A stretch of DNA of 32,000 bases from an uncultured Clostridia bacterium (GCA_947623955.1 CANQIP010000005.1:1142-33141); one strand, 5' to 3'. Positions 661-26,515 are shown, numbered from the stretch's first letter. Made by a program: numbers and translations. Notes: generated from the sequence alone by a model not told the origin.

Positions 661-674
661 CTATCTTCGCCCGA

Positions 675-1817: not shown

Positions 1818-1829
1818 TCTTTCGGTCTA

Positions 1830-4171: not shown

Positions 4172-4190
4172 CAACTGTTCCTCCTATCCT

Positions 4191-4240: not shown

Positions 4241-4261
4241 TAGCTTACGGAAAATTTTTCA

Positions 4262-10668: not shown

Positions 10669-13600
10669 TTATTTTACCGACGCGGTTATTTCGTTGCCGA
10701 GTGTGTCGGTGAATTTGTACTCGTAGTCTGTGTTGAACATATCGTCGTTGTTCCAACCAAGCTCCATATCCTTTAGACCCTGCGCCACCATCGACGCCCA
10801 CTTCTGCGCCGCGGCGTACGAGGAATGGAGCGTGTCGCCGCCGACCTCGGTGAGATTGTAATTCTTCGTTATCACGCCGTCGGCATTGTCGCCGTAAAGC
10901 GAGTTGAGGAAGTCATAGCTCATCTTTGACAGGTCTATGTATAGACAATCCTCGTCAACCGCCGCGTCTATGAGATAGCTGCTCCACGAAACGGACGGCT
11001 TATAGTCATGCTCGGACGCGTTGGGCGTTACGAGTATGGGAACCACGTCGTTTTCGCGGCACTCCCTGATCATAGCCTTTACGCACGACGTCATTTCCTC
11101 TCGCGTCGAATAGCTGCGGTCGTTGTAGCCGCACTCTATAAGGCAGTATGTCGGGCGGTTGTTCACAATCGACGGGAACGCCGTATCGTACAGTCCTTTC
11201 GCGTATTGTCCGCTGTTTGCGAGGTTCACGATGTCGGCGTTAATGTAGTTATCCAAAACCTGACCCCAGCCAGTTCTGCCGCCGCCTACCTCCCTTTCAT
11301 AGCTGCCGTAGTAATTGCACGCAAGCGAGTCTCCGATTACGTATATAAGCGGCTTTGTGTCAAGTCCCGAGCGCGTCAGACTTACGCTGTCCATGAGCGT
11401 AGAGCCGTCCGTCATTGAAACGGTCACTTTGCCGCTGTCGCCGATATAGAAATCCTTTACCGTGTACTGCGAGCCTTCGGTGAGCTTTCTGTCCGCGTCG
11501 CATTGGTCGACGTTGTTGCCCGCCATAAAGCCGTTCACAAATATATCGCCGCGCTTTGCCTCGCCCTTCTTGAAGGTGATGTTGTAGCGGTCTGTGAGGA
11601 AAGTGCCGTCAAGCGTCACGCCGTCGGCGCAGTTGCCGATATTTTCATACGTGTAAACGGGTGAAATCTGGTACCATATACCGTTCGGCACGCACGTTAC
11701 CTTAAAGCCCTCAATCGTTGTGTCGCTGTTCTTTATTTCTTCTATCAAGCCGTCCTTGCAGAAATACACCTTCTTTGTACCGTTCGCGGCGGCTACCTTG
11801 TCGCCCGTCTTTACCTTTTTGCTGCTTACGTTCCTCAACTCGCCGCTTGCAAGATAATACGCCGTAACGACCGTGCCGTCCTCTTTTACCGTGTACGCCG
11901 GTATGTCGCCGAGTTCGACGTCCTCCGTGCCGTTCCACCAGCTCACCTTGTATCCCGTTATATGCTCGTCGGGCGTTATTTCGTTTTCCGCGTATGACAC
12001 ATCAGCCTCGGCAATTCTGTCCATATAGTAGCCGTCAACCACGTAATCTACCGAAACTGCGTTGTCAACGCCCGTGTAAGCGTTCGCCGTAATCGTGGCT
12101 TTGCCCGTGCCTACGGGCGCAAGACGACCTGTCGGGGTCACCTTTAACACGCTCTCGTCGGACGATTTAAAGTCTTTGAGCATATACGAACCCATCTGCA
12201 TATCAGCATCGCCGGTTTTAACGCCGTATACATCGAACGCCAAATCTGTACCGTGCAGGTTGAGATATACCGTATTCCTGTTCCAATCGGTTATTTTCGC
12301 GTTTCCGACAATTTCTATCTCCTTCTGTACCGTCGTGCCGTTGTACGACGCGGTCAATGTCATTTTGCCCGACGCTACAGCCGAGGGGCTGACCGTGCAT
12401 ATGCCCTCAAAAGGCGGATAGGGCGTTCTGTCGTGCGGTGGCATCAGAACCTCCGCAAGAGCTGAGTCGGTCGTAAATTCAACGTGTGTTCCGTAAGGCG
12501 TGTACTCGGGTACGGCTGTGTATGTATATGTGCAGTCGCTTTCGTTTGCGAATGATGTTTCGGTTTTAACGGGCGGTACGATTTTGTCGGGACCCTCTAT
12601 CGTGATTTTGGTCGGGTCGGGGTACGATACACCGATATAGTCAAGCGCTGCGCCCTTGCCCGATACCGCGTTTATCTTGCTCACCGTGACGTTCTCACCG
12701 CCGCTTACAGCATCGTTTACGCAATACAGGCAGTCGTTCTGCTTTAAAAATACCTGACCGTTCTTCGTGTCGTAAAACAGTTCAAAATCCATGTTGTTCT
12801 TTTCGGCAATAACGGTGTCGTTCACGCTCATGTTTTCGCCGTCGTAGCTTATGCGCACTGGTATGTTGCAGTCGGATATAACGTCAGCGTAACCGTCCTT
12901 GTCGAATGTGACGCGACCGAATACCCGTGTAACTTCGCGCGCGTCTATCCCCTCGCCTATTTTGTACTCGCCGTCGAGCGCGAGAGTACCGTTTACCGTG
13001 CCGAAGTCGGACTCGTAATATTCCGCGTCCGTTTCGCACGTAAACGGTATATCCACGTTCGCGCCGTCCGATGTTATCTTCGCCGTAGTTTCGGATTCGC
13101 TGTAGCCGTCCTTGTACGCCTTAATCGTTACCGTCTCGCCCTCGGGATACGACGGGAGCGTGATGTGTCCGGTCTCGTCGGCAAGGAATTTTATGCCGTT
13201 TACGACGAGGTTCGCGTACTGCGTGGAGTTTATGTTAAGGTCGCGCAGCGGCTTGCCGTCGCCCTCGCTGATTTCGATTTTGCTGATGCACACCGCGCCC
13301 CACTTGTCGGCGTGGAACTCAATCGCCTTTGTACTTTCGCCCGTAACGACGCTTTCCGTCCGCCATGTGTCGAAGTTGTCGCCGTTTATCGAAATGTAGC
13401 GGTCGGCAATTTTAAGATACGCGTAAGGGTCGTTTGTGTTTCTGAGCGTCGAGCCGTTGTTTGTGACAACGGGCTTTGCGAATGTCAGCGTAACCTTGCT
13501 GCCCGCCGCTATTTCGGGTATGTTGAGCGTTATAATCGCGTTGTCGTTCACGTTCGCGCAGCCGAGGTATATGTACGAACCCGAAGCCGTAAATGTGTTA

Positions 13601-13854
13601 TTTACGGGGAACGTGCCCGCGTCCTTGTTGTGGGCGAGATCCGTTATCGCCGCGTATTTGCGGTTCATGTCGCCGGAGGTCGTGACCGTTATGTCCTTTG
13701 TGAGCGCAACGTCCGTTATGTCGTTAGGCGAGCCGTCGGTTATCACGTTGTTGCCGCTGAACGTGTACGTAACGCCGTTCGCCGCAGCCGCGCCGATGCC
13801 CGCCACCGACACGCAGAGAAACGCCGAAAGTATAATTGCCGCTATCTTTTTCAT
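10669..13854 (-). CDS. Secreted multidomain carbohydrate esterase: signal peptide, beta-sandwich/Ig-like modules, C-terminal SGNH/GDSL hydrolase (rhamnogalacturonan-acetylesterase-like)
   Basis: An internal ATG at 13854 is preceded by AAAGGAGAT and by its own promoter. The signal peptide is MKKIAAIILSAFLCVSVAGIGAAAANG. A Big_2-like segment reads VLKVTPTGRLAPVGTGKATITA. SGNH blocks are IGDSLA, GWGQVL, NLANSGQ, GYNDR and GGDTLHSS. Confidence 0.8.
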   Translation of the reverse strand: MKKIAAIILSAFLCVSVAGIGAAAANGVTYTFSGNNVITDGSPNDITDVALTKDITVTTSGDMNRKYAAITDLAHNKDAGTFPVNNTFTASGSYIYLGCANVNDNAIITLNIPEIAAGSKVTLTFAKPVVTNNGSTLRNTNDPYAYLKIADRYISINGDNFDTWRTESVVTGESTKAIEFHADKWGAVCISKIEISEGDGKPLRDLNINSTQYANLVVNGIKFLADETGHITLPSYPEGETVTIKAYKDGYSESETTAKITSDGANVDIPFTCETDAEYYESDFGTVNGTLALDGEYKIGEGIDAREVTRVFGRVTFDKDGYADVISDCNIPVRISYDGENMSVNDTVIAEKNNMDFELFYDTKNGQVFLKQNDCLYCVNDAVSGGENVTVSKINAVSGKGAALDYIGVSYPDPTKITIEGPDKIVPPVKTETSFANESDCTYTYTAVPEYTPYGTHVEFTTDSALAEVLMPPHDRTPYPPFEGICTVSPSAVASGKMTLTASYNGTTVQKEIEIVGNAKITDWNRNTVYLNLHGTDLAFDVYGVKTGDADMQMGSYMLKDFKSSDESVLKVTPTGRLAPVGTGKATITANAYTGVDNAVSVDYVVDGYYMDRIAEADVSYAENEITPDEHITGYKVSWWNGTEDVELGDIPAYTVKEDGTVVTAYYLASGELRNVSSKKVKTGDKVAAANGTKKVYFCKDGLIEEIKNSDTTIEGFKVTCVPNGIWYQISPVYTYENIGNCADGVTLDGTFLTDRYNITFKKGEAKRGDIFVNGFMAGNNVDQCDADRKLTEGSQYTVKDFYIGDSGKVTVSMTDGSTLMDSVSLTRSGLDTKPLIYVIGDSLACNYYGSYEREVGGGRTGWGQVLDNYINADIVNLANSGQYAKGLYDTAFPSIVNNRPTYCLIECGYNDRSYSTREEMTSCVKAMIRECRENDVVPILVTPNASEHDYKPSVSWSSYLIDAAVDEDCLYIDLSKMSYDFLNSLYGDNADGVITKNYNLTEVGGDTLHSSYAAAQKWASMVAQGLKDMELGWNNDDMFNTDYEYKFTDTLGNEITASVK

Positions 13855-16800
13855 GCTTTTATCTCCTTTTGGTTTGTTTTTATATATTGTATCAGAAAAT
13901 TTATAGTATTGCAAGTACACAAAAACAGACCGCACATGCGCCTTACCCTTTTTGGTATAGCCGATGATGTCCTCGATGTTTACCTCGTTGTTTTGCAGCT
14001 TTTCAAGGTTGGTGTAATACTCATCGTTCGCGTCCGCTATGATCTTCTGTTCTATGTCGTCCGATATTTTGTATTCCTTACCGTCAACGGTCATACTGTT
14101 TATTCTTTGAATTTTCAAAGAGTCCGCCGTATACTTTGACGCGTCGTCGGGCGACGCTTTCGCCACACCGTCAGCGACGGATTGAATAATAGTGTCTGCA
14201 TTGTTCTGTTTCGCCGCCTTATGCTCTGCCGCCGCTTGTTTTTCGGCTTGGTCTTTTTCTATAGCGGCGGGCGTAGAGGTTTCAAACGGATTTTTCGGCT
14301 TTCGTCCGTGATACGGTTCGGTATACACAAGCTTTGCATTGTCCTCCACATCTTCTCGCATGTTGCTTTGTGTTTCTTTTTGCGCCTCGGACTTGACCTT
14401 GTTTATAACGCGCTGCTTGATTATTTCGGGCAAGTCATTATAATTACCCTTAACGGTAATCCGTTTCTGTTTCTTGCCGTCTATAAAGTCTTGTACTTCG
14501 TCGCTTTCGAGCGTTGCTAAAACTCCTTCGTATTGCTCGTCGGTCATATCACCGGCGTAAAGGTCAGTATTTACTTCGATTACGTCCTCGACGTTTTCAC
14601 CGGCAAGTAACCTTTTCATGTAACCTTCCTTAACCTTGTTGCTGTCCTCGCTGTATTGTCTTGCCTGTTTTTGGGTCAGTTCGTAGGTTTTATCGTCGTA
14701 TTTTATATACGTCTTGCCGCTATCCTTATCAAAGCCGCCGTTAGCGAGTGCCTCTTTTATTCTTTCCGTTTCCTCGACAGTGTCGGCGGACATACCTGTA
14801 TTTGTGGGGTCGCCCGTAAACTTCTGTAAATAATAATCCCACCGCTTACGGTTAATAACACCGGGGTGAATAATGCCCTCATCATCAAGAGAACCGACTA
14901 TATTGTTATACAGACCGTTTAAGATGTTCTCGACGTTCTTGACGGGTACGCCGTTTAATGTGCCGAGTGACTTTGCCAAATCGTTAATAGCCTTTGCGTA
15001 TGCGGGAGGGTTGCTCATACCGTTGTCGTCAATCGTCTTTGCAAGCGACATAACCCCGCTTACAATATCGTTTATCCCACTTAAAGCCGACACTTCCATA
15101 TCATACCAGTTGCCGCCTTTGCCGATGTTGAATTTCGCAAGCAGTTCTTCTATGAGCTGCGTCGTCTCACTGCCGCCGAGTGTCGTACCCGCTATTGTGT
15201 TCACGCAGTCGGTAAGATACGCGCTTATTGAGGCGATATATTCGGCGGTGTCGCGGGCTGTAAAATACATATCTGTACTTACATCAATATCCCCGCTGTC
15301 AAAATATAAATCTTGCGCTTGCAAAGCAAGTGTTTCGATTGTTTCTGTCAGTTGCGCCGCGTCAACATCGCTCGCCACATCGTAGTCGCGTATAATACGT
15401 TTTGCGGCTTTTTGATATTCCTGTTGTGTTTTTGCGCTTTCGTTCTCCTCTTCGGTCGCCTTTTTGTTTGCCTTCCGCTGTTCCGCACGCTCCCGCGAGC
15501 GTTTAAGCTGTGTTTCGCGCCATTCGAGATACGCTTGATTTTCCGCCTCGCTGCCGATCATAAGGTTATTCCAGTCCTCCTCATTCGGCACTGGCGGCGC
15601 GTCCTCACTCTCCGCGTTTGTATCAACGCTGTGCTTGACATTTTCGTTATTCTGTGATATATTATTGGTAAAGGCATTGTTCGGAAGAGCGTTTTCAGAC
15701 GTCTGTCCGGGGTTCATATTTTGAACATCTGACACTTCCGACGCCTTATTTTTATATGCGGTTATGACAGATAATCTCCCCGTATCGGGTACTGCCTCAA
15801 CTACATAATAACTACCGTCTATTCTTTTCTCAAACACAACCTTTTTGGCGGGTGTGTTATCTTTATTTTTAAACCTCCAATCCGTTGTTTCCGATACCGT
15901 CATTGTATCGTAATTGTCAAGAACATACCCAATTCGCGCTATATCTCTGCTGTCAGCCATTGATTGGTCAGCCGTGCCGTTTGCTCCGTGGTCGTTTTCA
16001 ATATGCTCTATGGCATACTTGTCTATTGTGTTGTATGAACCTGAAACATCCGTACCCAGTTTATTTTTTATTTCTTGTGCGGCTCTATCTGATATTTTGG
16101 AAATTCTGTAATACCATCTTGTGCGACCGTCTTTTATACTGTCCATATACCTTATAAGTCCATTGTCAACCGCCGCCGTGTCGTCAGCCGTCCACTGCCC
16201 CGATTTTGTCGCAAGCTCCGCCGCCGTAGCGTCCGCGCCATTCTGTTCCAAAGCCGCCTTTGCCGTTTCGTATGTTTCCTTATTGGAAATGCCCTCGTAC
16301 ATAAATTCGTCAATGCGGCTCTCCGCCTCGTTCTTGAAGTCGTCGGTAAACATTTCCTTTTGCATGGTGTTTTCATACAGTTTGGAAACCTTTTTGTTAT
16401 TCTCCTCATTCGGTGCGGGCGGAGCGTCCTCACTCTCCGCGTTTGTATCAACGCTGTACTTGACATTTTCACCCGTCTGCGTCTGCTCCGATGTATCAAC
16501 CGAATAATCAGTCTTGACATTTTCGTCGGGATTTGTTATACTGGTATCAACGGAGTTTCCTTTCGCGGATGTGGATTTATCCACGGCCTTTGAGCCACTA
16601 AAAGCCGGAAAGGGAACTTCGTCTATTTTTCCAATATTGTATACGGTTTTGTTTTCGCTGTCCAATCCTACTGAGATTGTAAGTCTATAATACTTTCCGT
16701 CAAAATCCCTGAAATAACCTGTCCGATAATTAAATCCGTCTTTTGCAAAGTTATGATTTTTTCTGTCGGGTTCAGTTGTCTTACCTCTCTTTGATATTTG

Positions 16801-17067
16801 CGCCAATTCATCAATATGACCGGCAGCAGTTATTTTTGTTTTGTATTCTTTATCAGTCAATCTTCTGGTAGTATTATCAGGATTTCTAACTTCATTCCTA
16901 TATCCCAATTTCCACGCGGTTTTCTCGGATATAGTAAGATTATCACCATCGTCTGTCGGAATTACAACATCACGCCCGTTACGGATTTCGTTATTGATAT
17001 AGTCATAAACCTCACCTTCCCAGTCGTCGGGGTTGTCGCTTTTAATTACCTGTCTGTCAGCCTGCAC
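13855..17067 (-). CDS. Element-encoded multidomain 'polyvalent'-type protein whose frame runs across the att junction, without a stop, into the esterase gene
   Basis: These are the first 1071 codons of the 2132-codon track ORF. The N-terminal module reads NHNFAKDGFNYRTGYFRDFDGKYYRLTISVG. A His-rich nuclease-like module reads IDKYAIEHIENDHGANG...RLSVITAYKNK. A long helical region follows. The GTG start has no obvious RBS, and the element-derived sequence ends at about 13935. Confidence 0.55.
13886..13914 (-). promoter_or_regulatory. Sigma-A-type promoter of the SGNH esterase gene
   Basis: On the minus strand: TTGCAA (13914-13909), a 17-nt spacer, then TACAAT (13891-13886), about 30 nt upstream of the RBS. 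Confidence 0.55.
13921..13934 (+). repeat. 14-nt att-like repeat AAAAACAGACCGCA at the outer end of the element
   Basis: Identical to the reverse complement of 24127-24140, which is the 3' arm plus U-tract of the tRNA-Arg terminator. Confidence 0.6.
15577..15645 (-). repeat. Intragenic 69-nt repeat, copy 2 (linker ENVKHSVDTNAESEDAPPVPNEE)
   Basis: About 62/69 nt identical to 16402-16470 by hand alignment. Confidence 0.8.
16402..16470 (-). repeat. Intragenic 69-nt repeat, copy 1 (linker ENVKYSVDTNAESEDAPPAPNEE)
   Basis: See 15577-15645. Each copy follows a globular module. Confidence 0.8.
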
Positions 17068-17194
17068 ATATTTTAAGTTTGTACCGGGTATCGTTTCTAC
17101 ACTGTAAGCCGTCTCCCCTGAGGCTCCCCTATTGGGGGAGCTGTCAGCGTAGCTGACTGAGGGGTTTGTATTTCTGTGCGCACCTGCCGACGCG

Positions 17195-17326
17195 TTATCG
17201 GCTCTCTCCCAACATCCGTCTTTTCTTTTTCTTCTCGTATGAGCTGCGCGATATTCCCAACTTATCAGCGACTTGCTGATTTGTCATACCAAATCTCGCC
17301 TGCTCCGCCTCTAAATTTCTGAACAT
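17195..17326 (-). CDS. 43-aa helix-turn-helix fragment (XRE-like, probably truncated or frameshifted)
   Basis: Translation is MFRNLEAEQARFGMTNQQVADKLGISRSSYEKKKKRRMLGESR, with RBS gaaggtgagg. It ends inside an A-rich run and overlaps the open upstream frame of the polyvalent-type ORF. Confidence 0.4.
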   Translation of the reverse strand: MFRNLEAEQARFGMTNQQVADKLGISRSSYEKKKKRRMLGESR

Positions 17327-17415
17327 TTTTCCTCACCTTCTTTCAATTTACATCATTTTGTTGTGTTTTTAACCCTTTTGTGCTATAATCACCATAGAAA
17401 GCGAGGTGATTATCA

Positions 17416-17583
17416 ATGGATGCTCGTGTTGAGGTTGCTCTGCAACTGACATTGAAAAATTTGAATGCTGCTGAGTATATGAAAGATACAAGACTGACAA
17501 ATGCTAAAGATACAAACATAAAATTAGCCGAGGCAGTAACAGAATTTTTCAATACCGTTTATGACAAACTACCGAAAGAGTAA
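17416..17583 (+). CDS. 55-aa helical protein of unknown function
   Basis: ATG preceded by GAGGTGA. A TGcTATAAT extended -10 lies at 17381-17389. Too short for the track threshold. Confidence 0.35.
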   Translation: MDARVEVALQLTLKNLNAAEYMKDTRLTNAKDTNIKLAEAVTEFFNTVYDKLPKE

Positions 17584-17584
17584 A

Positions 17585-17734
17585 TTACTCTTTTATTTCG
17601 CTTATTTTCTTAAGCATGTCTAAAATATGAGATTGTGCATGCGGCGGATAGTTTTCAAAGCCCTCTATCATTGTTTCTACTTTTTGATAGAGTGCTTTTT
17701 TTATCCGTTGTAATGTTTCTTTCTCATCAACCAC
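17585..17734 (-). CDS. 49-aa protein of unknown function in the cro-like position, divergent from the XRE gene
   Basis: GTG start with GAGGTGA 5 nt upstream. It lies immediately downstream of a consensus TTGACA-17-TATAAT promoter. Confidence 0.4.
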   Translation of the reverse strand: MVDEKETLQRIKKALYQKVETMIEGFENYPPHAQSHILDMLKKISEIKE

Positions 17735-17762
17735 TGTTCTCACCTCGCTTTCATAAATTACC

Positions 17763-17843
17763 ATTTTGCTAATCTAAAAACATTATATTAGCGTTTTGCT
17801 ATTTTGTCAATACTTTTTTCAAAAATATTATCATTTTGTTAAT
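17763..17843. promoter_or_regulatory. Four copies of an 11-nt operator-like motif RTTTTGYYAWT in the divergent promoter region
   Basis: The copies are ATTTTGCTAAT (17763), GTTTTGCTATT (17793), ATTTTGTCAAT (17801) and ATTTTGTTAAT (17833). They overlap or flank both promoters. Confidence 0.45.
17782..17810 (-). promoter_or_regulatory. Consensus sigma-A promoter reading leftward
   Basis: On the minus strand: TTGACA (17810-17805), a 17-nt spacer, then TATAAT (17787-17782). Confidence 0.6.
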
Positions 17844-17849
17844 TTTTTA

Positions 17850-17878
17850 TTGACAACCGTATTTTAATAGTGTATATT
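17850..17878 (+). promoter_or_regulatory. Promoter of the XRE operon
   Basis: TTGACA (17850-17855), a 17-nt spacer, then TATATT (17873-17878). AGGAGG precedes the ATG at 17898. Confidence 0.55.
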
Positions 17879-17897
17879 AACTTTAGGAGGTGGCACT

Positions 17898-18281
17898 ATG
17901 AACGGCTTTGGAGAACGGCTTGTAGCTGCGCGTGAAAAAAAAGGATTAAGTCAAAAAGCTCTTGCGGAACTTTTGGATATTACACCTACACGCTTAAACT
18001 ATTGGGAAAAAAACAAACGTGAACCTGATTTCTATTATTTTTCTCAAATAATAGAAGTTTTGGACATTGAGGCTAACGAATTACTCGGACTTTCTAAAAC
18101 AGCAGATCAGTTAAATCGAAACAAGGATTTCTCTCTTTCCAAAATAGAGCAAAGCCTCATAGCTGATTTTCGTAACCTCTCGGATCAAGGGCAGGACTAT
18201 ATACTTCAAACTATGGATATGGTAAAAGATAAATATAAAAAAGATTTTTATTCTTCCAACGTGGAGGAAAAAGTAAGCTAA
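17898..18281 (+). CDS. XRE-family helix-turn-helix transcriptional regulator (repressor-like)
   Basis: GERLVAAREKKGLSQKALAELLDITPTRLNYWEKNKREP is a typical Cro/C1-type HTH. Strong RBS. Confidence 0.85.
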   Translation: MNGFGERLVAAREKKGLSQKALAELLDITPTRLNYWEKNKREPDFYYFSQIIEVLDIEANELLGLSKTADQLNRNKDFSLSKIEQSLIADFRNLSDQGQDYILQTMDMVKDKYKKDFYSSNVEEKVS

Positions 18282-18287
18282 GGTGTT

Positions 18288-18674
18288 ATGACAATGAATA
18301 TATTAGATAAAATAACGCGGATATTGTTTTACCCGTCATGGTTTGGATATATTTTCGGAACTATGTGCATTTTTATATGTTTCGGTATGTATCTGAAATC
18401 TACATGGCATGATACTGCAATAGCACAAAAACGCTTTATTATCATTTCCTTGATATGTTTAGCCATCGGCATTATCAACATTCCTTTAACTGGTATTGTT
18501 AAAGCAAATGCCGATAAAGGTGTAAGCGGTACAGGGGCAAAGATATACGATGAAATAACGGAATATGCTCACAAAATTTACGGCGAAGATTATCCCGATG
18601 CTATTACATCACTGCGTGATGATTTAAAAACTCTCAGCGAAGGCTACAATGAAGGGTATAGTGACAGTTATTGA
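18288..18674 (+). CDS. Small membrane protein (2 TM helices plus an acidic tail), unknown function
   Basis: 128-aa ORF with RBS AAGGTG. It starts 6 nt after the XRE stop and has two clear hydrophobic segments. Confidence 0.55.
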   Translation: MTMNILDKITRILFYPSWFGYIFGTMCIFICFGMYLKSTWHDTAIAQKRFIIISLICLAIGIINIPLTGIVKANADKGVSGTGAKIYDEITEYAHKIYGEDYPDAITSLRDDLKTLSEGYNEGYSDSY

Positions 18675-18706
18675 GAATGACGTGATTATTAGAAGGAGTA
18701 AAGCGT

Positions 18707-19201
18707 ATGTCCGAGCAAGAGTCGTCTACATTTACGATAATTATAGCGGCTGTTATAGCAGTCATATATCTAATATATAGAATGATTAAAGTTTTTATTG
18801 ATAGTCCAAGTAGAAAAAATGTCATATTCTTTACTTTGACGTGCGAATATCTTATTGACTCTATGGAAGTTGATATTGACGACTTAAATCCAAAATGTAA
18901 GACACTCCTGATGCAACAAATAAAGCAACTGATAAAACAAACAAAAAAAGAAATTCAGAAGTGGGATAAATCTGTTAATTATACATATATGGCATATAAA
19001 ACAATATATAACATGGCTTTTGATTTGCTTTCTACTGGCAAATTTAATATGTATGACGGAATATTCTATAGAGAGGGTTCACATTTACATACTGTTTGTA
19101 TAAGATGTCTTGATTGGTATAAAACAAATGGATATATTACTGAATTGCAATATAAGGAGCAGTTGAATATTTTATATGATAATATATTTCATTTAGGATA
19201 A
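18707..19201 (+). CDS. Membrane-anchored protein (N-terminal TM plus ~135-aa helical cytoplasmic domain), unknown function
   Basis: 164-aa ORF with RBS GAAGGAG. The hydrophobic segment is TFTIIIAAVIAVIYLIY. Confidence 0.55.
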   Translation: MSEQESSTFTIIIAAVIAVIYLIYRMIKVFIDSPSRKNVIFFTLTCEYLIDSMEVDIDDLNPKCKTLLMQQIKQLIKQTKKEIQKWDKSVNYTYMAYKTIYNMAFDLLSTGKFNMYDGIFYREGSHLHTVCIRCLDWYKTNGYITELQYKEQLNILYDNIFHLG

Positions 19202-19233
19202 AATTTTAAGATATACAAGAAGGAATAGTTAAA

Positions 19234-19377
19234 ATGAAAAAGATACTGATATTTCTTTTTCTGTATATGATGTGCGGCGCAACTGCTTACGCGCACGCGG
19301 GCAGAACCGACGCATACGGCGGTCACTACGACAACGAAACGGGCGAATATCACTATCACCACGGCTACCCCGCGCAT
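19234..19377 (+). pseudogene. 5' fragment (48 codons) of a YHYH-motif membrane protein gene, cut by the inversion
   Basis: RBS GAAGGAA, a signal peptide, then HAGRTDAYGGHYDNETGEYHYHHGYPAH. Past 19377 the track ORF merely reads antisense through the CHAP gene. Confidence 0.65.
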
Positions 19378-20330
19378 CTTACCTTTGACAGGCCGGTGTC
19401 ATCACTTACCTTACATTCAATCATATATCCGTTATCATCTATTCCTATAATTTCCCCGTAACTGATAACGGGTGGATTCCATTCGTTATAATCAACGCTA
19501 ACGCATGATTGATTATTATTTTTGTCATATGCGTATATATGATTTAAGTACAGAATATTTTTTTCGCTGTTATGTTTAGAGAAATTTATATACAATTTCC
19601 ATATTCCGGGGGAAGTGTTCACCATGTCATTCCATATAAGGTCATCTTGATCGTTATTTAGAGTCCATGTCGCACATTTTACATTTGAAATACCTGAGGA
19701 ATCGGAAACCGAACATTGAAGCATGTATCCGTTTGCATCTACTCCGACAACCTTTGCATCAGATATTGTCGGCGGTGTTGTATCTCCTGAATCCCATTTT
19801 GGTCGGATAACGCCTTGAAAATTTCCCCAACCGCCAAAATACTGCATAGTTTGATACTGTGCCGCGGTTCCGTTATAATTGTTGGCAGCACCGTTTTGAC
19901 CCACGCCTTTCATAATTGACACGGTACAGCCTTCTATCGCTACCGCTACATGACCGTATGAGTTTGAAGAGTTGGCTCCAAAGCATAATATATCTCCGGG
20001 CTGAGGTACGAAATCCGGCGTATTAGAAATTTTTTGCCATCCACTCGGATATGATTTACTGAAATAATCCTTAGCGTCATAAGTCCTAAAACCGCCTCCA
20101 CCGGTGTTTTTCCAGTAGTGCGCATCGCCGTATACTATATAATTCATATATGCCGACACAAAGTCAGTACATTGACCGCCAAAACCCGAATCCTTGTACA
20201 TAACTCCATTGTTAGCTTGTGTTTTTGCCCAATTTACAGCTTGATCACGCGTCATTGCTCCAGCGGAAACGGTGTATAAAGCTATAACGGCAAAAATCAC
20301 TCCCACAATACACAAAAATTTTCTCTTCAT
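19365..20330 (-). CDS. Secreted CHAP-domain peptidoglycan hydrolase with Bsp-like repeats, 3'-truncated by the inversion
   Basis: It has a signal peptide and CHAP Cys/His motifs (GGQCTDFV, YGHVAV). One complete Bsp-like repeat is present (CATWTLNNDQDDLIW...HIYAYD). A second repeat breaks off at ...SKVRCA, followed by an out-of-context G and a stop. Confidence 0.8.
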   Translation of the reverse strand: MKRKFLCIVGVIFAVIALYTVSAGAMTRDQAVNWAKTQANNGVMYKDSGFGGQCTDFVSAYMNYIVYGDAHYWKNTGGGGFRTYDAKDYFSKSYPSGWQKISNTPDFVPQPGDILCFGANSSNSYGHVAVAIEGCTVSIMKGVGQNGAANNYNGTAAQYQTMQYFGGWGNFQGVIRPKWDSGDTTPPTISDAKVVGVDANGYMLQCSVSDSSGISNVKCATWTLNNDQDDLIWNDMVNTSPGIWKLYINFSKHNSEKNILYLNHIYAYDKNNNQSCVSVDYNEWNPPVISYGEIIGIDDNGYMIECKVSDDTGLSKVRCAG

Positions 20331-20625
20331 TTTAATTCCTCCTACAAATAAATTTTCGCATCAAAAATGCGTGGCACAAATCCGCACCACGCACAAAAAC
20401 GCGGCTTGGATAAATGTTACCACACATTTTTTATTATATATAGAATACTGTAAACTGCATCTCAAACACTATAACTGTTCTGCATATAAGCTGTTCTACA
20501 TACAAGACCGCGCTTTTTGCAAAGTATGGTTATAGTGTTTGTACATAAAAAACATAATATTCCTTTAACAAAGAATATCATAATTTTTTATATTAAAAAA
20601 ACAGTATTATATATGATTATATAAT

Positions 20626-20664
20626 AAAAAATGTTGTGGTATATATACTATACCACATTTTTTG
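20626..20664. terminator. Hairpin terminator downstream of sigK
   Basis: Hairpin tgtggtata-tatac-tataccaca with flanking A- and T-runs. Confidence 0.65.
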
Positions 20665-20698
20665 CTTATTTTCAATAGGAATATTTATTTTTCTGCTT

Positions 20699-21388
20699 TT
20701 ACAGTGTCCCTTTAAGCTCCGCCGCGAGCTTTTCAAGGCAGCGTTTTTCGATACGGCTCACGTAGCTGCGGCTTATACCGAGAATATCCGCGACCTCGCG
20801 CTGTGTCTTGCGCTTGCCGCCGCCGAGACCGTAACGCCAGCAGATTATATTCGTTTCGTTTACGGTGAGCGTTTTCTTTATCGCGGCACGGAGCTTCTGC
20901 GCCTCTATTTTATCCGAAATAATCTCGGAAACGTCCGTGTCGTCGGCTGTGAGTATATCGGAAAGCGTCATATTGTTGCCTTCCTTGTCCGAACCGACGC
21001 TTTCCTCGATTGACACCTCGTTCTGCAGTTTCTTAGCCTTGCGCATGTACATAAGCACTTCATTTTCTATGCACCGCGATATGTATGTTGAAAGACGGCT
21101 GTTTTTGCGCGGGTTAAAGGTGTTAATACCCTTTATAAGCCCTATTGTGCCGATTGAAATCAAATCCTCTGTATTTTTATCGTCGGCGTACTTTTTCGCG
21201 ATGTGCGCCACAAGGCGCAGATTGCGCTCTATAAGAATATTTTTCGCGCTTTCGCTGCCCTCGGCGTACTCGACAAGGTATTTTTTCTCTTCCTCAGCAG
21301 TCAGCGGTTTCGGGAAAGCGGCGCTCCCGCTTACATACCCCGCGAGTATAAGTACCGTCTGTATCCATTCAAAAAAAATCCCCAACAT
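20699..21388 (-). CDS. sigK: Sporulation sigma factor SigK (pro-sigma-K), uninterrupted
   Basis: YVSGSAAFPKPLTAEEEKKYL, NLRLVAHIAKKY, GTIGLIKGI, DKEGN and GISRSYVSRIEKRCL match SigK rather than SigE as I recall them. I chose the start at 21388 (MLGIFFEW..., RBS AAGGGGG), which leaves a short pro-sequence. Confidence 0.88.
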   Translation of the reverse strand: MLGIFFEWIQTVLILAGYVSGSAAFPKPLTAEEEKKYLVEYAEGSESAKNILIERNLRLVAHIAKKYADDKNTEDLISIGTIGLIKGINTFNPRKNSRLSTYISRCIENEVLMYMRKAKKLQNEVSIEESVGSDKEGNNMTLSDILTADDTDVSEIISDKIEAQKLRAAIKKTLTVNETNIICWRYGLGGGKRKTQREVADILGISRSYVSRIEKRCLEKLAAELKGTL

Positions 21389-21609
21389 CTGTCCGCACCC
21401 CCTTAAAACATAATATGCGCGGTACAAACTTTGTTTTAACATCGTCGCTGTCCTTATTTTGTTTATATTTTTGAATATTGGGAAAGATTATACGGTAAGT
21501 CATATTTTGTCTTTTTATTGTAACACACATATAAAGGGGCTGATATTGATTTGAAACGGATAAACCTATATAATTAAAGCGTGTATAGGAGGAAACGGAG
21601 GTCGGATAT

Positions 21610-22935
21610 ATGTTATGTAATAAATGCGGTTCACAGATACCCGATGATGCTACAGAGTGCGAATTTTGCGGAGCAAAGGTGGACGCTTCCGCCAACAACA
21701 GCGATACAAAGGTACTGAATACAGATGAACTGGCTGCCGCCGCGGCAGGTGTCGGCACTGGAGCTGCCGTCAATAACGGCGGTGATATTTTTGACGATAA
21801 CGAAAAGAAACGCCGCGAACAAATGGAAAAAATGATGGAGGACAAGAAAAAGCAGCTTTCCGAAATCGAGAAAAGGCGCAATGAAAAACGTAAAAAACAG
21901 AAGAGAAAAAAGATAGCGATAATCGCCCTTATCTGCGCGGCAGCCGCAGGTGCGACCGGTCTCGGAGCGCATTATGTAATCAAGGGTGTGATCGGCAATA
22001 CGGTGACAACGGAGCAGACATTGCCTGTATCTTCTCCGACTCCGTCGGCGAGCCCGTCACCGTCGGCAAGCCCGTCAGCCTCGCCTTCGGTAAGTCCGTC
22101 GCCGTCACCGTCGGCTGCACCGACCGCAAGCGTTTCACCGTCGGGTGTGTCGGCGTCGGGTACGCAGAACGGTAACGGCTCGACCACGCAGTCATGGACG
22201 AGCGTGTCTTCGGGCGCATCGTCTCCGCGTTCAGGTTCGTCCTCGGGTACAACCGGCGGCAGACAGGGGGGCAGCGGTTCATCAACAGGTCAGTCGTCGT
22301 CGGGAACAACGGCATCCTCGGGCGGCTCTGGCAGCAGCGCGTCATCTTCATCGTCCTCTGCGTGGGGCGGAGGTTCATCGTCGCAAGGCTCGTCGTCACA
22401 AACCGCGTATGCGAACGCTGCCGACAGCGGTATTGTGTCGGATAAAATTTCGGCAAAGCTCGTCACAGGCGGCGAGGTTATACGCGACAGCGCGACAGGT
22501 AAGCCGTTAATGACGTTTGTAATGGGCGGCACCCGGTATTACGCGAACGTGTCCGAGGGCAGCACAACCGATCAGGTTAAGGGCAAAACCTTTACCATAG
22601 ACGCGGACGCGACGGGAGAAAGCTATAACGGCAACACCATTTACGAAATTTCAAGCATGACGAAGTACGATGGCGACTACATTCTGCCGAATTCAGGTAC
22701 AAGACTTCTGACGCAGAGCGATATAAGCGGATTGTCAAAATACGACCTTGCGCTTGCCCGAAATGAAATTTATGCGCGTCACGGACGCAAATTCCAGACT
22801 GCGGAGTACAGCAATTATTTCTCGGCAAAGTCGTGGTACCACATAAACCCGAATTATAATTACAGCGACGACGACGGCAACTTAAACGACATAGAGCGTA
22901 AAAACGTTATGCTGATACTTAACGCGGAAAAATAA
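21610..22935 (+). CDS. Zinc-ribbon / TM / Ser-Pro-Gly-rich / YARHG-domain protein
   Basis: The N-terminus carries CNKCGSQIP...CEFCG. A K-rich segment and TM helix follow, then a long low-complexity linker. The C-terminus carries LARNEIYARHGRKF (YARHG motif). Confidence 0.8.
   Translation: MLCNKCGSQIPDDATECEFCGAKVDASANNSDTKVLNTDELAAAAAGVGTGAAVNNGGDIFDDNEKKRREQMEKMMEDKKKQLSEIEKRRNEKRKKQKRKKIAIIALICAAAAGATGLGAHYVIKGVIGNTVTTEQTLPVSSPTPSASPSPSASPSASPSVSPSPSPSAAPTASVSPSGVSASGTQNGNGSTTQSWTSVSSGASSPRSGSSSGTTGGRQGGSGSSTGQSSSGTTASSGGSGSSASSSSSSAWGGGSSSQGSSSQTAYANAADSGIVSDKISAKLVTGGEVIRDSATGKPLMTFVMGGTRYYANVSEGSTTDQVKGKTFTIDADATGESYNGNTIYEISSMTKYDGDYILPNSGTRLLTQSDISGLSKYDLALARNEIYARHGRKFQTAEYSNYFSAKSWYHINPNYNYSDDDGNLNDIERKNVMLILNAEK
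22027..22396 (+). repeat. Low-complexity Ser/Pro/Gly-coding tract inside the YARHG gene
   Basis: Degenerate SPSPSA-type and SSGS-type repeats. They generate spurious ORFs in the other frames. Confidence 0.7.
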
Positions 22936-22969
22936 AATTGCACACATAGGATAAAAGGGATATAAAAAG

Positions 22970-23002
22970 ACGGGGACACTAAAGCAATTTTAGTGTCCCC
23001 GT
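22970..23002. terminator. Bidirectional terminator between the YARHG gene and metA
   Basis: 14-bp stem acggggacactaaa / tttagtgtccccgt. Confidence 0.75.
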
Positions 23003-23008
23003 TACGTT

Positions 23009-23926
23009 TTAGTTGATGCTGTCTATATCATACGGAGTAATCTGATATACGAAGTAGTTGAGCCAGTTTGAAAACAGGAGATACGCGTGAGAGCGCCACC
23101 TCGCCGCCGGACGCCTTGTCGGGTCGTCGTTGGGGAAGTAGTGCTTGGGTATCTGCGGATTTAAGCCCTTTTCGAGGTCGCGGAAGTATTCGTCGCGCAG
23201 CGTGTTCGCGTCGTACTCGCTGTGACCCGTCACAAAAATGCGTCTGCCGCCCTTTGTGAATACAATGTACACGCCCGCCTCCTTTGACTCGGCAAGCACT
23301 TCAAGTTCCTTTACCTTGTCTATATCCTCTCTTAAAACGCATGAGTGGCGCGAATGGGGAGCGTAAAATTCGCTGTCGAACCCGCGCACAAGCTTAGCCG
23401 TCCTGCGCGTCACGCGGTGGCGGAACACACCGGAGCATTTTTCTTTGAGCGCGTGTTTCGGCACGCCGTAATGGTAGTACATACCCGCGAACGCCGCCCA
23501 GCAGATGTGGAGCGTGGAGGTGACGTTCGTCTTTGACCACTCCATTATTTCTACAAGTTCATCCCAGTAATCGACTTCTTCAAACTCCAAATTCTCGACC
23601 GGCGCGCCGGTTATGATCATGCCGTCGTATTTCGACTTTTTTATCTCGTCGAACGTCTTGTAGAACGCCGCCAGATGCTCGGCGGACGTATTTTTCGATT
23701 CGTGCGAGTCCATTTGCAGAAAATCAATCTCCACCTGCAGCGGCGAGTTGGACAAAAGCCTTAAAAGCTGCGTTTCGGTCGTTATTTTGGTAGGCATCAG
23801 ATTTACTATTACTATTTTAAGAGGACGTATATCCTGGTGCATAGCCTTTTTTTCACTCATTACAAATATATTCTCCCTGCGCAGCTGGCTTGTCGCAGGC
23901 AACTTGTCCGGAATTTTGATAGGCAT
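23009..23926 (-). CDS. metA: Homoserine O-acyltransferase MetA
   Basis: [23 protein letters not shown]...[14 protein letters not shown] is canonical MetA. I chose the start at 23926 (305 aa) rather than the track's 23986. Confidence 0.9.
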
Positions 23927-23986
23927 ATACACTCTCTCCCTTCGTGATTTAATCCGTCTATATGAGTATAACACAAAAATCCGCAT

Positions 23987-24015
23987 TTGACAATATTAAA
24001 ATGATATGGTAGAAT
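23987..24015 (+). promoter_or_regulatory. tRNA-Arg promoter, sharing a palindromic -35 with the divergent metA promoter
   Basis: On the plus strand: TTGACA (23987-23992), 17 nt, TAGAAT (24010-24015). On the minus strand: TTGTCA (23993-23988), 17 nt, TATACT upstream of metA. Confidence 0.5.
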
Positions 24016-24025
24016 AATCGGGTAC

Positions 24026-24102
24026 GCACCCGTAGCTCAGTCGGATAGAGCGCAAGACTCCGACTCTTGAGGCCGCAGGTTCGAATCCCGTCGGGTGCGC
24101 CA
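24026..24102 (+). tRNA. tRNA-Arg: tRNA-Arg (anticodon CCG), CCA encoded
   Basis: The cloverleaf was folded by hand. Acceptor stem GCACCCG/CGGGTGC, D-arm GCTC..GAGC, anticodon stem CAAGA/TCTTG with loop CTCCGAC, and T-loop TTCGAAT. There is one A:C mismatch in the T-stem. Confidence 0.88.
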
Positions 24103-24107
24103 GAATA

Positions 24108-24140
24108 GAAACAGACCGCATAGGTATGCGGTCTGTTTTT
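24108..24140 (+). terminator. tRNA-Arg terminator hairpin; inferred integration target of the element
   Basis: Hairpin gaaacagaccgca-taggta-tgcggtctgttttt. Its 3' arm is repeated (as the reverse complement) at 13921-13934. Confidence 0.75.
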
Positions 24141-24144
24141 CTGT

Positions 24145-24166
24145 ATCCCCGAATTATCCCCGAATT
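24145..24166. repeat. Tandem 11-nt repeat ATCCCCGAATT x2 between the att repeat and the integrase stop codon
   Basis: Perfect tandem duplication. Its position is typical for arm-type integrase binding sites. Confidence 0.5.
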
Positions 24167-24177
24167 TTACCGGAAAT

Positions 24178-25338
24178 TTATATTTTTGCTCTAATTTTGT
24201 TCAGTACAGTGAGCGCACGTTCTTCCTCTTTTGGATATAAATGCGAGTAAGTGTTCCAGGTCATTTTAATATCGCTGTGACCGAGACGGCGAGCGATTTC
24301 CTGAATATTGATACCGTTATTAGCGAGAAGGGATGCGTGGCTATGTCTAAAATCGTGTATACGGATTTTCTTCAATCCTGCCGCAGACGCGTATTTTTGG
24401 TTACGGTTTTCGATCGTGCTGTCACGTAGGCATTTGACGCCGCCGCATATCCGCCAGTCGTCCGAAAATCCGTCAAGCATTTTCAGCCGATTATAATGTT
24501 CGGTCAAAACGTCTTTCAGCGGCAAAGGTATTTGTATATCACGCACGGAGCTTTTATTTTTCGGCGGCGTTTCGCGGTCGCCGCCCTTTAGCTTTTGCGC
24601 GATACTGCGAGTTACGTGGATTGTGTTATCCGATATATCCGTCCATTTCAGCGCGTTTATTTCGCCCTTTCTCATGCCGGTGTAGAAAGCGATATTGAAA
24701 AACACATAGAAATTCCACTCGTAAAGGCTGCCGAATGTCTGTTCCGACTGCTCGGCTTGTTCACGCGCGGCGGCAATAAATTTTAAAAATTCGTCCGCCG
24801 TGTAAAAATCCATATCGTTTTTTATTATATTCGCGTCTTTGAAATTGCCGAGCTTTGTCAGCGGGTTTTTGTCGATGTACTCCATTTTTACGGCATAGTT
24901 CAACACGGCGCGAAAAACAGAATATATTTTATGCTTATACTCCAGCGAAAGAGAGTTTTTTGTTGACGTCATGTATTCGTCTATGTGCGTTTTCCAACGC
25001 TGAAACTGCGGCACTGTCAGCTTGCCGAGCCGCGCCGAACCAAAAAAGGGGATAATATAGCTTTTAATGATTTTGCTGTTTCGGTCAAGGGTGCTTTCAC
25101 GGACTTCGTTTCTTTTAACCCGAATATACTCATTACATAGGTCTGTTACCGTAATCTTCATTGAGATGTCCTCGTTATTAAGATCGCGCACGAGGCGGCT
25201 TTCAAGTTCTTTTGCCGCATCCTTGCCGTAAGCGACACGCTCAATCTGCTTATATGCGCCGAAACTGTCAACGTAGTTTACGCGCACACGGTATTTCTGC
25301 AAGCCGTTTTTTTTATCGCCTGTTTTATAAATCGGCAT
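24178..25338 (-). CDS. int: Tyrosine site-specific integrase (phage-integrase family, with an N-terminal arm-binding-type domain)
   Basis: The C-terminal catalytic pattern is HDFRHSHASLL...RLGHSDIKMTWNTYSHL. The N-terminus reads KYRVRVNYVDSFGAYKQ. Adjacent to the 3' side of the tRNA gene. Confidence 0.9.
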   Translation of the reverse strand: MPIYKTGDKKNGLQKYRVRVNYVDSFGAYKQIERVAYGKDAAKELESRLVRDLNNEDISMKITVTDLCNEYIRVKRNEVRESTLDRNSKIIKSYIIPFFGSARLGKLTVPQFQRWKTHIDEYMTSTKNSLSLEYKHKIYSVFRAVLNYAVKMEYIDKNPLTKLGNFKDANIIKNDMDFYTADEFLKFIAAAREQAEQSEQTFGSLYEWNFYVFFNIAFYTGMRKGEINALKWTDISDNTIHVTRSIAQKLKGGDRETPPKNKSSVRDIQIPLPLKDVLTEHYNRLKMLDGFSDDWRICGGVKCLRDSTIENRNQKYASAAGLKKIRIHDFRHSHASLLANNGINIQEIARRLGHSDIKMTWNTYSHLYPKEEERALTVLNKIRAKI

Positions 25339-25353
25339 AAAAATAACACTCCC

Positions 25354-26073
25354 TTATTTATTTTTCTTATCCCACTCAGCATATTCGGAGTTTGGGAACA
25401 TCTCAACAAACCAATCATCTATGCCCTCAACCGGATTACAGTGGGGACAGGCGGTGTAGCCTTGCAGAACAGCATCATATCTATGTAAGGTCGCCCGTAC
25501 TTTGCCTTTGCCGTGCAGGGCCTTGCAGGAAAGAGTATGGTAACAGTGTCCATGTTGAGTGACATATACATTATATTCCATTCCCCAGCCGTATTCACGG
25601 TGATATTTGTACGGAAGTCCGTCGTCCCCTATAGCATAGCCGTCGGGACATTTCGGCGGAGTGTTGCCATGTTTTTTTAGTTCCTCGATTTCTTGTATAT
25701 GCTGCTCATTCAAATTGTTGATTTCGCTTTTATGCTTCTGTTTCAACGTGTCGATTTCTGCGATATGCTCTTTTTCGATACCTTTTATATTTCTTCTGTG
25801 CACAACCGACAAGCCTATAATGCCCGCGATACTGATTACCGGCACGACAGGGAATGACGATGTTTTCGCAGCCGCGTTATTGTTGTGCTGCGCGGCGGTA
25901 AGCGGCGCAGTAGTAGGCGGCGTTTTCTGTACGGACGCTATCGGCGGCGATAACGGATCGGGCGTTTCAAGGTGCAGTTCCGGCTTTGGCGTTGCGGTTG
26001 ACGTGGAAGAATTACCCGACGTGTGAACTGTTTTGTCTTTAAAGTCATACGGGCATACGCCGTCTATGTGTTC
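25354..26073 (-). pseudogene. 3' fragment (239 codons) of the YHYH-motif membrane protein gene
   Basis: The frame is open from 26073 with no start codon before the GTG at 25845. The sequence runs EHIDGVCPYDF..., a P/T-rich linker, a TM helix, a coiled coil, then a Cys/His module (GHCYHTLSC...ACPHCNP). It continues in frame from 19377 once the segment is flipped. Confidence 0.65.
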
Positions 26074-26515
26074 ATGTGCGACATGGACGAACGAAAACGG
26101 GCAGGATGACCTTGTATGGACTGATATGGTAAATACGTCCCCGGGAATATGGAAATTATATATTCATTTTTCAGAGCATGGTAAAAACACTCCATATGCA
26201 AATGACATATATGCCTATGATACTTTTCAGAAAGAATCAAAATGTTACAGTGTTCCGTTTGATTATTGGGATTTGAACGCTTTTCCGTTTGCGATATATA
26301 AATATAATGACCATATAAATGTGATAAATCTTGCATCAACTTCAAAAAATGCGGCTGTTATCTTCGCAAAATATGACGGTTCAAAACTTGTTGATTCAAG
26401 TTTCAGCAATGAAAGTTTTACGTCGGGAGAAAGAAAAAGCTATTCAAAATCGGGAAATGAATACAAAGTGCTCATATGGAACAGCCTTACGGGAATGAAA
26501 CCGTTGACGCAGTAA
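26074..26515 (+). pseudogene. 3' fragment of the CHAP/Bsp-repeat hydrolase gene
   Basis: It begins (C)ATWTNENGQDDLVWTDMVNTSPGIWKLYIHFSEHGK...DIYAYD, which completes the repeat broken at 19371. It has no RBS or signal peptide of its own. Confidence 0.75.

Follow-up and report, generated by a model that had tools for sequence, protein, structure and literature searches.

Does the integrase gene that stands beside a tRNA-Arg gene in this uncultured Clostridia bacterium belong to a compact mobile element aimed at the terminator hairpin of that tRNA gene, or is the locus what is left of a larger element? The stretch analysed, here called the window, comprises 32,000 nucleotides (GCA_947623955.1 CANQIP010000005.1:1142-33141), and all positions are counted from its first letter. 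It carries a tRNA-Arg(CCG) gene, the integration target, at 24026-24102 on the plus strand (found with ARAGORN), and a tyrosine integrase (Int) of 386 amino acids encoded at 24178-25338 on the minus strand by an open reading frame (ORF) that looks intact. The original prediction described a compact ~7.4 kb element inserted in the terminator and not in the tRNA body. We found that the segment is no compact mobile unit but an immobile remnant, left by an element of temperate-phage type, and its apparent terminator target is probably a product of decay.

The tRNA gene is followed by the hairpin AGAAACAGACCGCA-TAGGTA-TGCGGTCTGTTTTT (24107-24140, plus strand), with the 5' arm at 24107-24120, the loop at 24121-24126 and the 3' arm plus T-tract at 24127-24140. 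A terminator scanner passed over this hairpin, as it extends the stem across the T-tract, and the hairpin was established by folding (-22.5 kcal/mol for 24103-24146, z = -7.2). At 13921-13934 the plus strand reads AAAAACAGACCGCA, the exact reverse complement of 24127-24140, as had been claimed. The match reaches 19 nt with one mismatch (13916-13934 against 24127-24145), and on the minus strand 13916-13934 reads TGCGGTCTGTTTTTGTGTA, a leftover terminator 3' arm and T-tract (+GTGTA) that marks the far end of the element. The 5' arm at 24107-24120 also matches the 14-mer with one mismatch. The repeat is nevertheless no mere palindromic terminator match, which the original prediction had named as a way to be wrong: 0.03 matches per window are expected by chance, and a partner arm is lacking from the copy at 13921, where the fold of 13905-13960 shows no hairpin (z = 0.07). 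The predicted spacing also held. The gap between the end of the integrase ORF and the repeat is 37 nt (24141-24177), and 13935-19377 (5443 bp) and 24141-26073 (1933 bp) together make 7376 bp.

The two copies now lie in inverted orientation because a 6696-bp segment, 19378-26073, has been inverted, with breakpoints in a 287-amino-acid gene of the element and in a host CHAP gene. When the segment is un-inverted, 19234-19377 joins the reverse complement of 26073-25354 into one ORF of 287 codons, and 20330-19378 joins 26074-26515 into a 464-amino-acid CHAP/GBS_Bsp protein that is identical to the intact gene product of the element-free relative L043 at 461/464 residues without a gap. In the present arrangement the N-terminal part of the element gene (19234-19377, plus strand), with a signal peptide and a GEYHYHHGYPAH motif, ends at junction J1 (19377/19378), and its C-terminal part lies at 25354-26073 on the minus strand; the product has no Pfam family match. 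The host CHAP/GBS_Bsp-like gene (assigned by Pfam) is likewise split into an N-terminal part at 19378-20330 (minus strand) and a C-terminal part at 26074-26515 (plus strand). L043 aligns across the other junction, J2, as a single 8381-bp high-scoring segment pair only once the segment is un-inverted. The crossover occurred at a 6-7 nt microhomology (GCGCAT / GCACAT), which suggests illegitimate recombination and not a site-specific event. Both junctions are spanned by independent contigs, and the inverted layout recurs at 99.4-100% identity in contigs of ERZ27249158, ERZ27249180, ERZ27249647, ERR10663770 and ERR10663773. Since five other samples share these junctions, the predicted inversion is fixed in the lineage and is not an assembly artefact. 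Integration preceded inversion, since one of the breakpoints falls within the foreign segment, and with the element ends now in inverted orientation excision by attL x attR recombination between its attachment (att) sites is impossible.

Comparison with genomes that lack the element had been proposed as a check, and it was made with L043/L044 (~96% nucleotide identity), L047 and L010 (GCA_947626045.1, ~90% nucleotide identity). The element is flanked in the window by a host gene for a secreted SGNH/GDSL-type esterase of 1061 amino acids (10669-13854, minus strand; Pfam Lipase_GDSL_2), with a promoter-like site, TTGCAA-17-TACAAT, at 13886-13914 on the same strand. Its orthologues (94-98% identity) adjoin tRNA-Arg in the element-free genomes; they were reached through cluster members, an exact-protein look-up having given none, with assemblies calling a 2132-amino-acid fusion. 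All of these genomes are collinear with the un-inverted window. The 8381-bp segment pair of L043 spans dnaX, recR, the intact CHAP gene, a sigma factor gene, a YARHG gene, metA and tRNA-Arg up to window position 24146, homology picks up again at 13870, and no integrase lies between tRNA-Arg and the esterase in L043/L044, L047 or L010. The empty sites read tRNA-Arg, spacer, hairpin and TGCGGTCTGTTTTT-(G)TGTAT, then brnT-brnA (L043, L044 and L047) or a 314-amino-acid gene (L010), and then the esterase; in L043 and L047 the 3' arm and T-tract with their flank read TGCGGTCTGTTTTT-GTGTA, so that the 19 nt of 13916-13934 also follow tRNA-Arg there. The hairpin of the window is thus present at empty sites too. 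The tRNA-Arg sequence is the same in L043 and L010 and differs at two positions in L047. The window has no brnT-brnA (the equivalent spot lies between 13870 and 13916), and the segment specific to it is 7434 bp long (13871-21304 after un-inversion). Because collinear empty sites contain no integrase, this segment is foreign; an integrase-bearing insert of ~7.4 kb does stand between tRNA-Arg and the esterase, and the ancestral order that had been predicted (tRNA-Arg, terminator, (brnTA), esterase, all on one strand) is the one found.

In most relatives the brnT-brnA toxin-antitoxin pair stands upstream of the esterase; it occupies L043 9421-9984, L047 3463-3967 and 74-578 of the short contig L046. 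L010 retains only the brnTA promoter and start, and its 314-amino-acid gene is low in GC. In the genus, the short stretch that follows TTTTT(G)TGTA is a variation hot spot.

The gene content of the segment is that of a truncated element. Its early region has the divergent XRE / Cro-like switch that had been described. An XRE-type helix-turn-helix (HTH) protein of 127 amino acids, cI-like, is encoded at 17898-18281 on the plus strand (Pfam HTH_3, 2.7e-13; PHROG transcriptional repressor / regulator), and it is followed in the lysogeny-arm operon by ORFs of 128 and 164 codons (18288-18674 and 18707-19201, both on the plus strand). The first of these has no significant family match and is hydrophobic on inspection, so a membrane protein is likely; the second has no Pfam or PHROG match. 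On the opposite strand the Cro-like HTH gene (17195-17326) encodes 43 amino acids, against 64 in relatives; the full protein is found in L006 and L013, and homology with both ends at window position 17216. Beyond it lies an internal fragment of a polyvalent-type gene (13935-17145, minus strand), recognised by a PBECR3 domain (Pfam, 5e-15) at ~15736-16098. This fragment matches internal positions of homologues of 587-1705 amino acids and begins mid-domain: P0184, P0192, P0193 and P0185 align from 13-26 codons 5' of the mechanical GTG, and the open frame 5' of that GTG has no start codon (ORF listing, frame 0) and no ribosome binding site (RBS) on inspection. The frame has no stop either; it crosses the repeat and the esterase promoter and continues in frame into the esterase. 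The resulting mechanical ORF of 2132 codons (10669-17067, minus strand) is recorded by public gene calls (L003; cluster member P0253). In this public 'protein' a fragment of a phage gene is fused in frame to the host esterase, which has a promoter-like site, an RBS and a signal peptide of its own. It is very likely an annotation artefact. We found no match to the polyvalent fragment in phage or plasmid collections or in IMG/VR, the neighbourhood of P0190, its closest partial homologue, was uninformative, and no homologue was detected for its C-terminal ~500 residues.

Two observations on this fragment stand apart. It contains a 69-nt direct repeat, 93% identical (15577-15645 and 16402-16470), that encodes a repeated linker-like peptide (ENVK[HY]SVDTNAESEDAPP). 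At its junction with the Cro-like stub there is a GC-rich stretch of nested hairpins (CCCCTCAGTCAGCTACGCTGACAGCTCCCCCAATAGGGGAGCCTCAGGGG; 17090-17165, minus strand), and the surrounding 153 nt fold at z = -2.1.

How far the decay has gone differs between copies. L006, a contig of sample ERR10663770, matches the window at 99.4% identity over the element and across J1, and diverges at L006 1-358, left of window position 17216. L006 has the intact 64-amino-acid Cro-like gene and a Zn-ribbon gene at the position of the polyvalent fragment of the window. As L006 shares J1 and has a fuller early region, at least part of the decay came after the inversion, and more and less decayed versions of the element coexist in the population. 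Pfam and PHROG scans of the element ORFs found no replication, packaging, head, tail, structural, lysis or transfer family, and no rep, primase, terminase-small-subunit or relaxase match. Conservation of the gene set as a unit, whose absence elsewhere the original prediction had named as a point against it, was confined to contigs of this one lineage, which are nearly identical (99.4-100%); what L013 and L050 have in common with the window is the integrase and fragments, no more. Cargo next to the integrase gene is variable: at L050 148-573, from another sample, where a 97%-identical integrase adjoins tRNA-Arg, a 141-amino-acid gene stands upstream of the integrase instead of the 287-amino-acid one.

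In the integrase, Pfam Phage_integrase matches at 2.1e-21 (residues 211-369) and Phage_int_SAM_3 at 6.4e-14 (residues 63-115), PHROG 1 integrase matches at 3.8e-71, and putative catalytic segments picked by eye in the translation are GMRKGE, HDFRHSHAS and GHSDIKMTWNTYSHL. Between the repeat and the integrase gene lies a perfect tandem of ATCCCCGAATT (24145-24155 and 24156-24166, plus strand), as had been noticed, which we predict to be the P' arm-type sites of the integrase. This assignment was strengthened in three ways: tandem 11-mers occupy the same position in 15/15 relatives with a tRNA or tmRNA gene beside the integrase gene, they recur in the other arm of attP forms, and they vary together with the N-terminus of Int. 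The ATCCCCGAATT motif and its position are also found in L011, L050 and L049, the last with a further copy, ATCCCCGAA, ~190 nt across the core. Int residues 1-62 are 94-95% identical among ATCCCCGAATT elements (L011, L050) and only 69-74% identical to those of TACACG elements, although the remaining residues are 83-91% identical; that these residues track the arm motif further supports the arm-site assignment. L012 and L013 show the same partition, with 91% identity to the window Int over residues 63-386 and only 72-74% over 1-62. From these comparisons, residues 1-62 (window 25153-25338) and the 11-nt arm motif (ATCCCCGAATT or TACACGTTTTT) appear to be exchanged as a module apart from the catalytic part. 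No ATCCCCGAATT-like site was found near 13935 or elsewhere in the element; the P pair is missing.

The search for homologues of the integrase that had been suggested returned 3331 at E<=1e-30, and the architecture of the att sites could be read in its relatives. Relatives at 63-64% identity lie at the ends of 29-37 kb IMG/VR contigs, which are prophages of siphovirus type, and one such phage encodes tape measure, Dit, tail fibre, holin and endolysin proteins on its attL side. An 82%-identical integrase belongs to an element of more than 10 kb with an S24 repressor, PcfJ, DUF3102, Lar and a Rep protein. The L049 locus (11 kb of a 31.4 kb contig) has ATCCCCGAATT x2, an S24 repressor, a Phg_2220_C gene and a 1149-amino-acid LPD38 polyvalent gene that adjoins the att region and P arm and converges on the integrase gene. 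The polyvalent fragment of the window holds the same position.

We compared 15 relatives in which a tRNA or tmRNA gene adjoins the integrase gene. The order tRNA 3' end, short spacer, hairpin, tandem 11-nt repeat and integrase stop is kept in all of them, and the hairpin is of the type ACCGCA-N6-TGCGGT in 10/15 despite target tRNAs as different as Ala, Arg, Tyr, Trp, Leu, Pro and tmRNA. Three attP forms (L115, on the same contig as L042; L026; L049) read integrase, P' pair, hairpin, spacer, a 17-19-nt tRNA 3' fragment, ~150-190 nt and P-arm sites, and both arm-site pairs are present in L024, L115, L026 and L049. Every attP recovered from the integrase family contains a tRNA fragment. For a tRNA-Leu phage all three junctions are available, namely attP (L115), attR (L040) and attL (L051/L074/L075). 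They have only the 17-nt TCCTGTTATCCGCACCA in common, and attL runs on into a different, host terminator, CAGAGTAAGCG...CGCTTACTCTGTTTTTTTT. Because the triad shares only these 17 nt, its crossover falls within the final 17 nt of the tRNA; the integrase-side hairpin is phage-borne, and the host terminator is displaced to the far end. In L024 a 16-nt tRNA-Ala direct repeat recurs 6.9 kb apart, with a second host terminator at the far end and arm-site pairs on both sides. Insertion in the terminator hairpin and not in the tRNA body, the central claim about the target, is therefore disfavoured by what the attP, attL and attR of relatives share, the 17-nt tRNA 3' end.

L024, from a roe-deer metagenome-assembled genome (4318-4480 and 11159-11295), is an apparently intact element of 6.9 kb, and its cargo comprises cI/Cro-like genes, DUF6291, an ArpU-like regulator and a Fic protein with a ribbon-helix-helix protein, without structural genes. 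Its P arm also contains, 48 nt from the displaced tRNA fragment, an exact duplicate of the 14-nt hairpin 3' arm and T-tract. We considered this 14-nt repeat as support for a core in the terminator and dropped it, because L024 fits the classical layout in its 16-nt tRNA repeat, in its displaced host terminator and in how its arm sites are spaced.

On this evidence we give a probability of about 60% to the following course of events. An element of ~30 kb, temperate and phage-like, with a heterobivalent integrase would have entered tRNA-Arg(CCG) in an ancestor of the strain by a crossover within the last 16-17 nt of the tRNA, as in its relatives and in phage mv4; in the window the likely crossover or identity block is about 24086-24102. 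The element would have supplied a replacement tRNA 3' end, its own hairpin, the 11-bp arm-site pair and the integrase gene on the tRNA side, and the resident tRNA fragment and terminator would have been displaced to the far end. The 6.7 kb inversion at the 6-7 nt microhomology, probably an illegitimate one, then split the element gene and the host CHAP gene and inverted the ends. Recombination or deletion may have removed everything that separated the Cro-like gene from the middle part of the terminal polyvalent gene. A far-end deletion may have cost the polyvalent gene its 3' end and the resident terminator its 5' half, along with the P arm and the displaced tRNA fragment, sparing only TGCGGTCTGTTTTT-GTGTA; such a deletion would explain why the displaced tRNA fragment is missing. 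What is left today is ~7.4 kb with the integrase, its arm sites, four lysogeny-arm ORFs (the last one split), a repressor/Cro stub and a polyvalent fragment. The order and number of the deletions in this scheme are inferred, as is a crossover in the tRNA rather than in the hairpin. By this account the window 14-mer most likely represents the half of the displaced resident terminator that survived, not a crossover core, and the window hairpin (24107-24140) is most likely element-borne rather than host DNA.

Several points weigh against this course of events. A second copy of the tRNA 3' end, CCCGTCGGGTGCGCCA, is absent from the window at <=3 mismatches, bar one chance match in recR. With no tRNA-Arg fragment at the far end, the crossover step rests on relatives of 53-63% identity and on indirect evidence from the clade at 82-91%. 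Element-free genomes already have the hairpin and (G/T)TGTAT, so the phage-borne and resident hairpins must have been near-identical, which requires either a long block of identity, or gene conversion, or a relic that this phage family left earlier. The repeat starts within +/-2 nt of the boundary between loop and 3' arm, on this account a coincidental deletion endpoint, perhaps one helped by the palindrome. Single-nucleotide differences in the spacer and 5' arm do not separate phage-derived from host-derived copies, and no un-inverted or complete copy of the window element was found. Nor did searches recover its own attP: the arm-site pair had no match in IMG/VR and two in Joint Genome Institute (JGI) metagenomes, L049 and the unrelated L048, neither of them the attP of the window element; the tRNA-Arg 16-mer gave only chance matches in high-GC phages in IMG/VR; and the P0002 and P0003 contigs end inside the tRNA.

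The terminator reading has it that the integrase subclade of the window exchanges strands in the 3' arm and T-tract of the tRNA-Arg terminator (TGCGGTCTGTTTTT(+NTGTA)), so that the repeat is the att core and the hairpin on the integrase side is host DNA. The repeat is indeed exactly the 3' arm and T-tract, the hairpin with its GTGTA flank already stands in three element-free genomes, and the variants of the integrase-side spacer and 5' arm fall within the range of host-lineage variation. Within the clade at 82-98% identity the hairpin block tracks the target tRNA and the P' motif varies independently, with the joint at TTTTT-CTGTAT, and integrases 90-91% identical sit at Ala and Arg tRNAs beside a very similar 3' arm and T-tract. 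This last point loses force in the light of mv4-type integrases, which tolerate different cores with matching overlaps, so that similar integrases at different tRNAs need no shared hairpin core. The reading gives no reason for a tRNA 3' fragment and a full hairpin between the arm pairs in three attP forms, and it is at odds with the tRNA-Leu triad, whose crossover falls in the tRNA and whose hairpin is phage-borne. At the non-orthologous tRNA-Ala loci of L008, L011 and L012 the spacer AAACGA, the hairpin and the 16-nt tRNA end are 100% identical while tRNA bodies and flanks differ, whereas the spacer at orthologous tRNA-Arg varies among genomes 90-96% identical. The P' sites would also lie only ~5-25 nt from the crossover, and a far-end deletion is needed anyway, the P arm being missing. 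The base after the T-tract, C or G, was tried as a marker of element against host and dropped, as L050 (Int 97% identical) has G. Literature searches for attB sites inside tRNA terminators turned up neither a precedent nor a contradiction. The far end of the window is too degraded to fix the crossover directly, so the terminator model is disfavoured; we hold it possible but doubtful. Marginally more doubtful is its evolutionary form, in which the Arg/Ala-targeting subclade (82-98% identical to the window Int) moved strand exchange from the tRNA end into the 3' arm and T-tract of ACCGCA-type terminators, making the repeat a core duplication. Two further explanations fare worse. That the element is compact by design, a ~7 kb satellite or integrative mobilisable element, agrees with the 6.9 kb of L024, which has the same integrase family, both arm pairs, clean ends and no structural genes, and with the intact integrase ORF and XRE gene of the window. 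It is largely refuted by the truncations: the polyvalent ORF has no start, RBS or stop and begins mid-domain, the Cro-like gene is shortened where L006 is fuller and less deleted, the P-arm sites at the far end are gone, no ORF encodes a replication, packaging or transfer function, and the inverted ends forbid excision. We therefore consider it improbable. That there is no element at all, a chance or palindromic terminator match having met a misassembled inversion, draws on the fact that a palindromic terminator lets either arm match. It is contradicted by the chance expectation and the partnerless copy, by homology with element-free relatives breaking exactly at the repeat points, by junctions reproduced in five other assemblies and by the 461/464 match of the un-inverted CHAP protein to L043, and can be regarded as already refuted.

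The reading we prefer, a decayed phage-like element that crossed over in the tRNA, places the locus among known systems. Cryptic or defective prophages keep a lysogeny module and integrase, lose lytic and structural genes, contain truncated genes and do not excise. The window likewise keeps the lysogeny module and integrase, has lost the lytic and structural genes, has truncated genes and cannot excise; it differs in the flank-crossing inversion of its ends and in the in-frame fusion of a phage gene fragment to a host gene. Iyer et al. in 2017 reportedly described polyvalent proteins of phages and conjugative elements. The window shares with such proteins the PBECR3 nuclease-type domain and a module conserved in proteins of 587-1705 amino acids, but its copy is an internal fragment without a complete reading frame.

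The closest architectural parallel is Lactobacillus phage mv4, whose 17-bp core is the tRNA 3' end and each of whose arms has a pair of adjacent 11-bp sites in direct repeat. What chiefly determines its specificity is that the 7-bp overlaps be identical, and different cores are tolerated if overlaps match (Debatisse et al., bioRxiv 10.1101/2023.11.06.565760). That preprint assigns mv4 integration at the tRNA 3' end to 'class III' in the sense of Williams 2002. The likeness to mv4 lies in a heterobivalent tyrosine integrase of ~370-390 amino acids belonging to a Bacillota phage, a 17-bp core with the sequence of the tRNA 3' end (in the relatives of the window), an attP of ~215-260 bp with an adjacent pair of 11-bp direct-repeat arm sites at each end, and targets that change with little change in Int. 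It is a likeness of architecture; the closest cultured-phage integrases found are ~32% identical (C. difficile phages). Unlike mv4, the window family has a conserved ACCGCA-N6-TGCGGT terminator hairpin between core and P' pair, and the window copy shows only the P' half, the P arm and the displaced tRNA fragment being lost. The Islander catalogue (PMC4383910) describes tRNA and tmRNA islands that restore the split gene and leave a displaced fragment to mark the far end. Here too the integrase gene adjoins and converges on the regenerated tRNA, the family uses many tRNAs and tmRNA, and relatives have the displaced far-end fragment (L051/L074/L075, L024). In the window, by contrast, that fragment is gone and only half a terminator is duplicated, so fragment-based island finders would miss or mis-delimit the remnant.

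Elsewhere in the window, unoccupied tmRNA and tRNA-Leu(CAG) genes (31042-31390 and 31550-31636) have terminators unrelated to the hairpin; both genes are targets of integrase relatives in other genomes. A 3.6 kb block at 661-4254 is missing from the 96%-identical L043/L044. Within it are genes for a BlaI-type repressor (3794-4174) and for a BlaR1/M56 peptidase (2967-3797), besides two ORFs of ~370 codons without a family. A related BlaI/M56 cassette stands at another place in L010, between recR and the CHAP gene, and the block may be a mobile cassette.

Taken for itself, the element is an ordinary genomic fossil of a familiar type, and the terminator target is probably an illusion of its decay. 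A half-terminator repeat beside a tRNA gene can mimic an att core after the true far end of a prophage has been deleted, and att sites are best called from intact relatives and not from a remnant. If the terminator reading were true after all, attachment sites would include a distinct class, the terminators of tRNA genes. The relatives of the window integrase make up a large uncultured clade of mv4-like integrases of gut Clostridia, whose phages bring their own tRNA 3' end and terminator. Two modules appear to be swapped separately in this clade, the arm-binding domain with its arm sites and the tRNA fragment, and such modularity is relevant to the reprogramming of integrase specificity.

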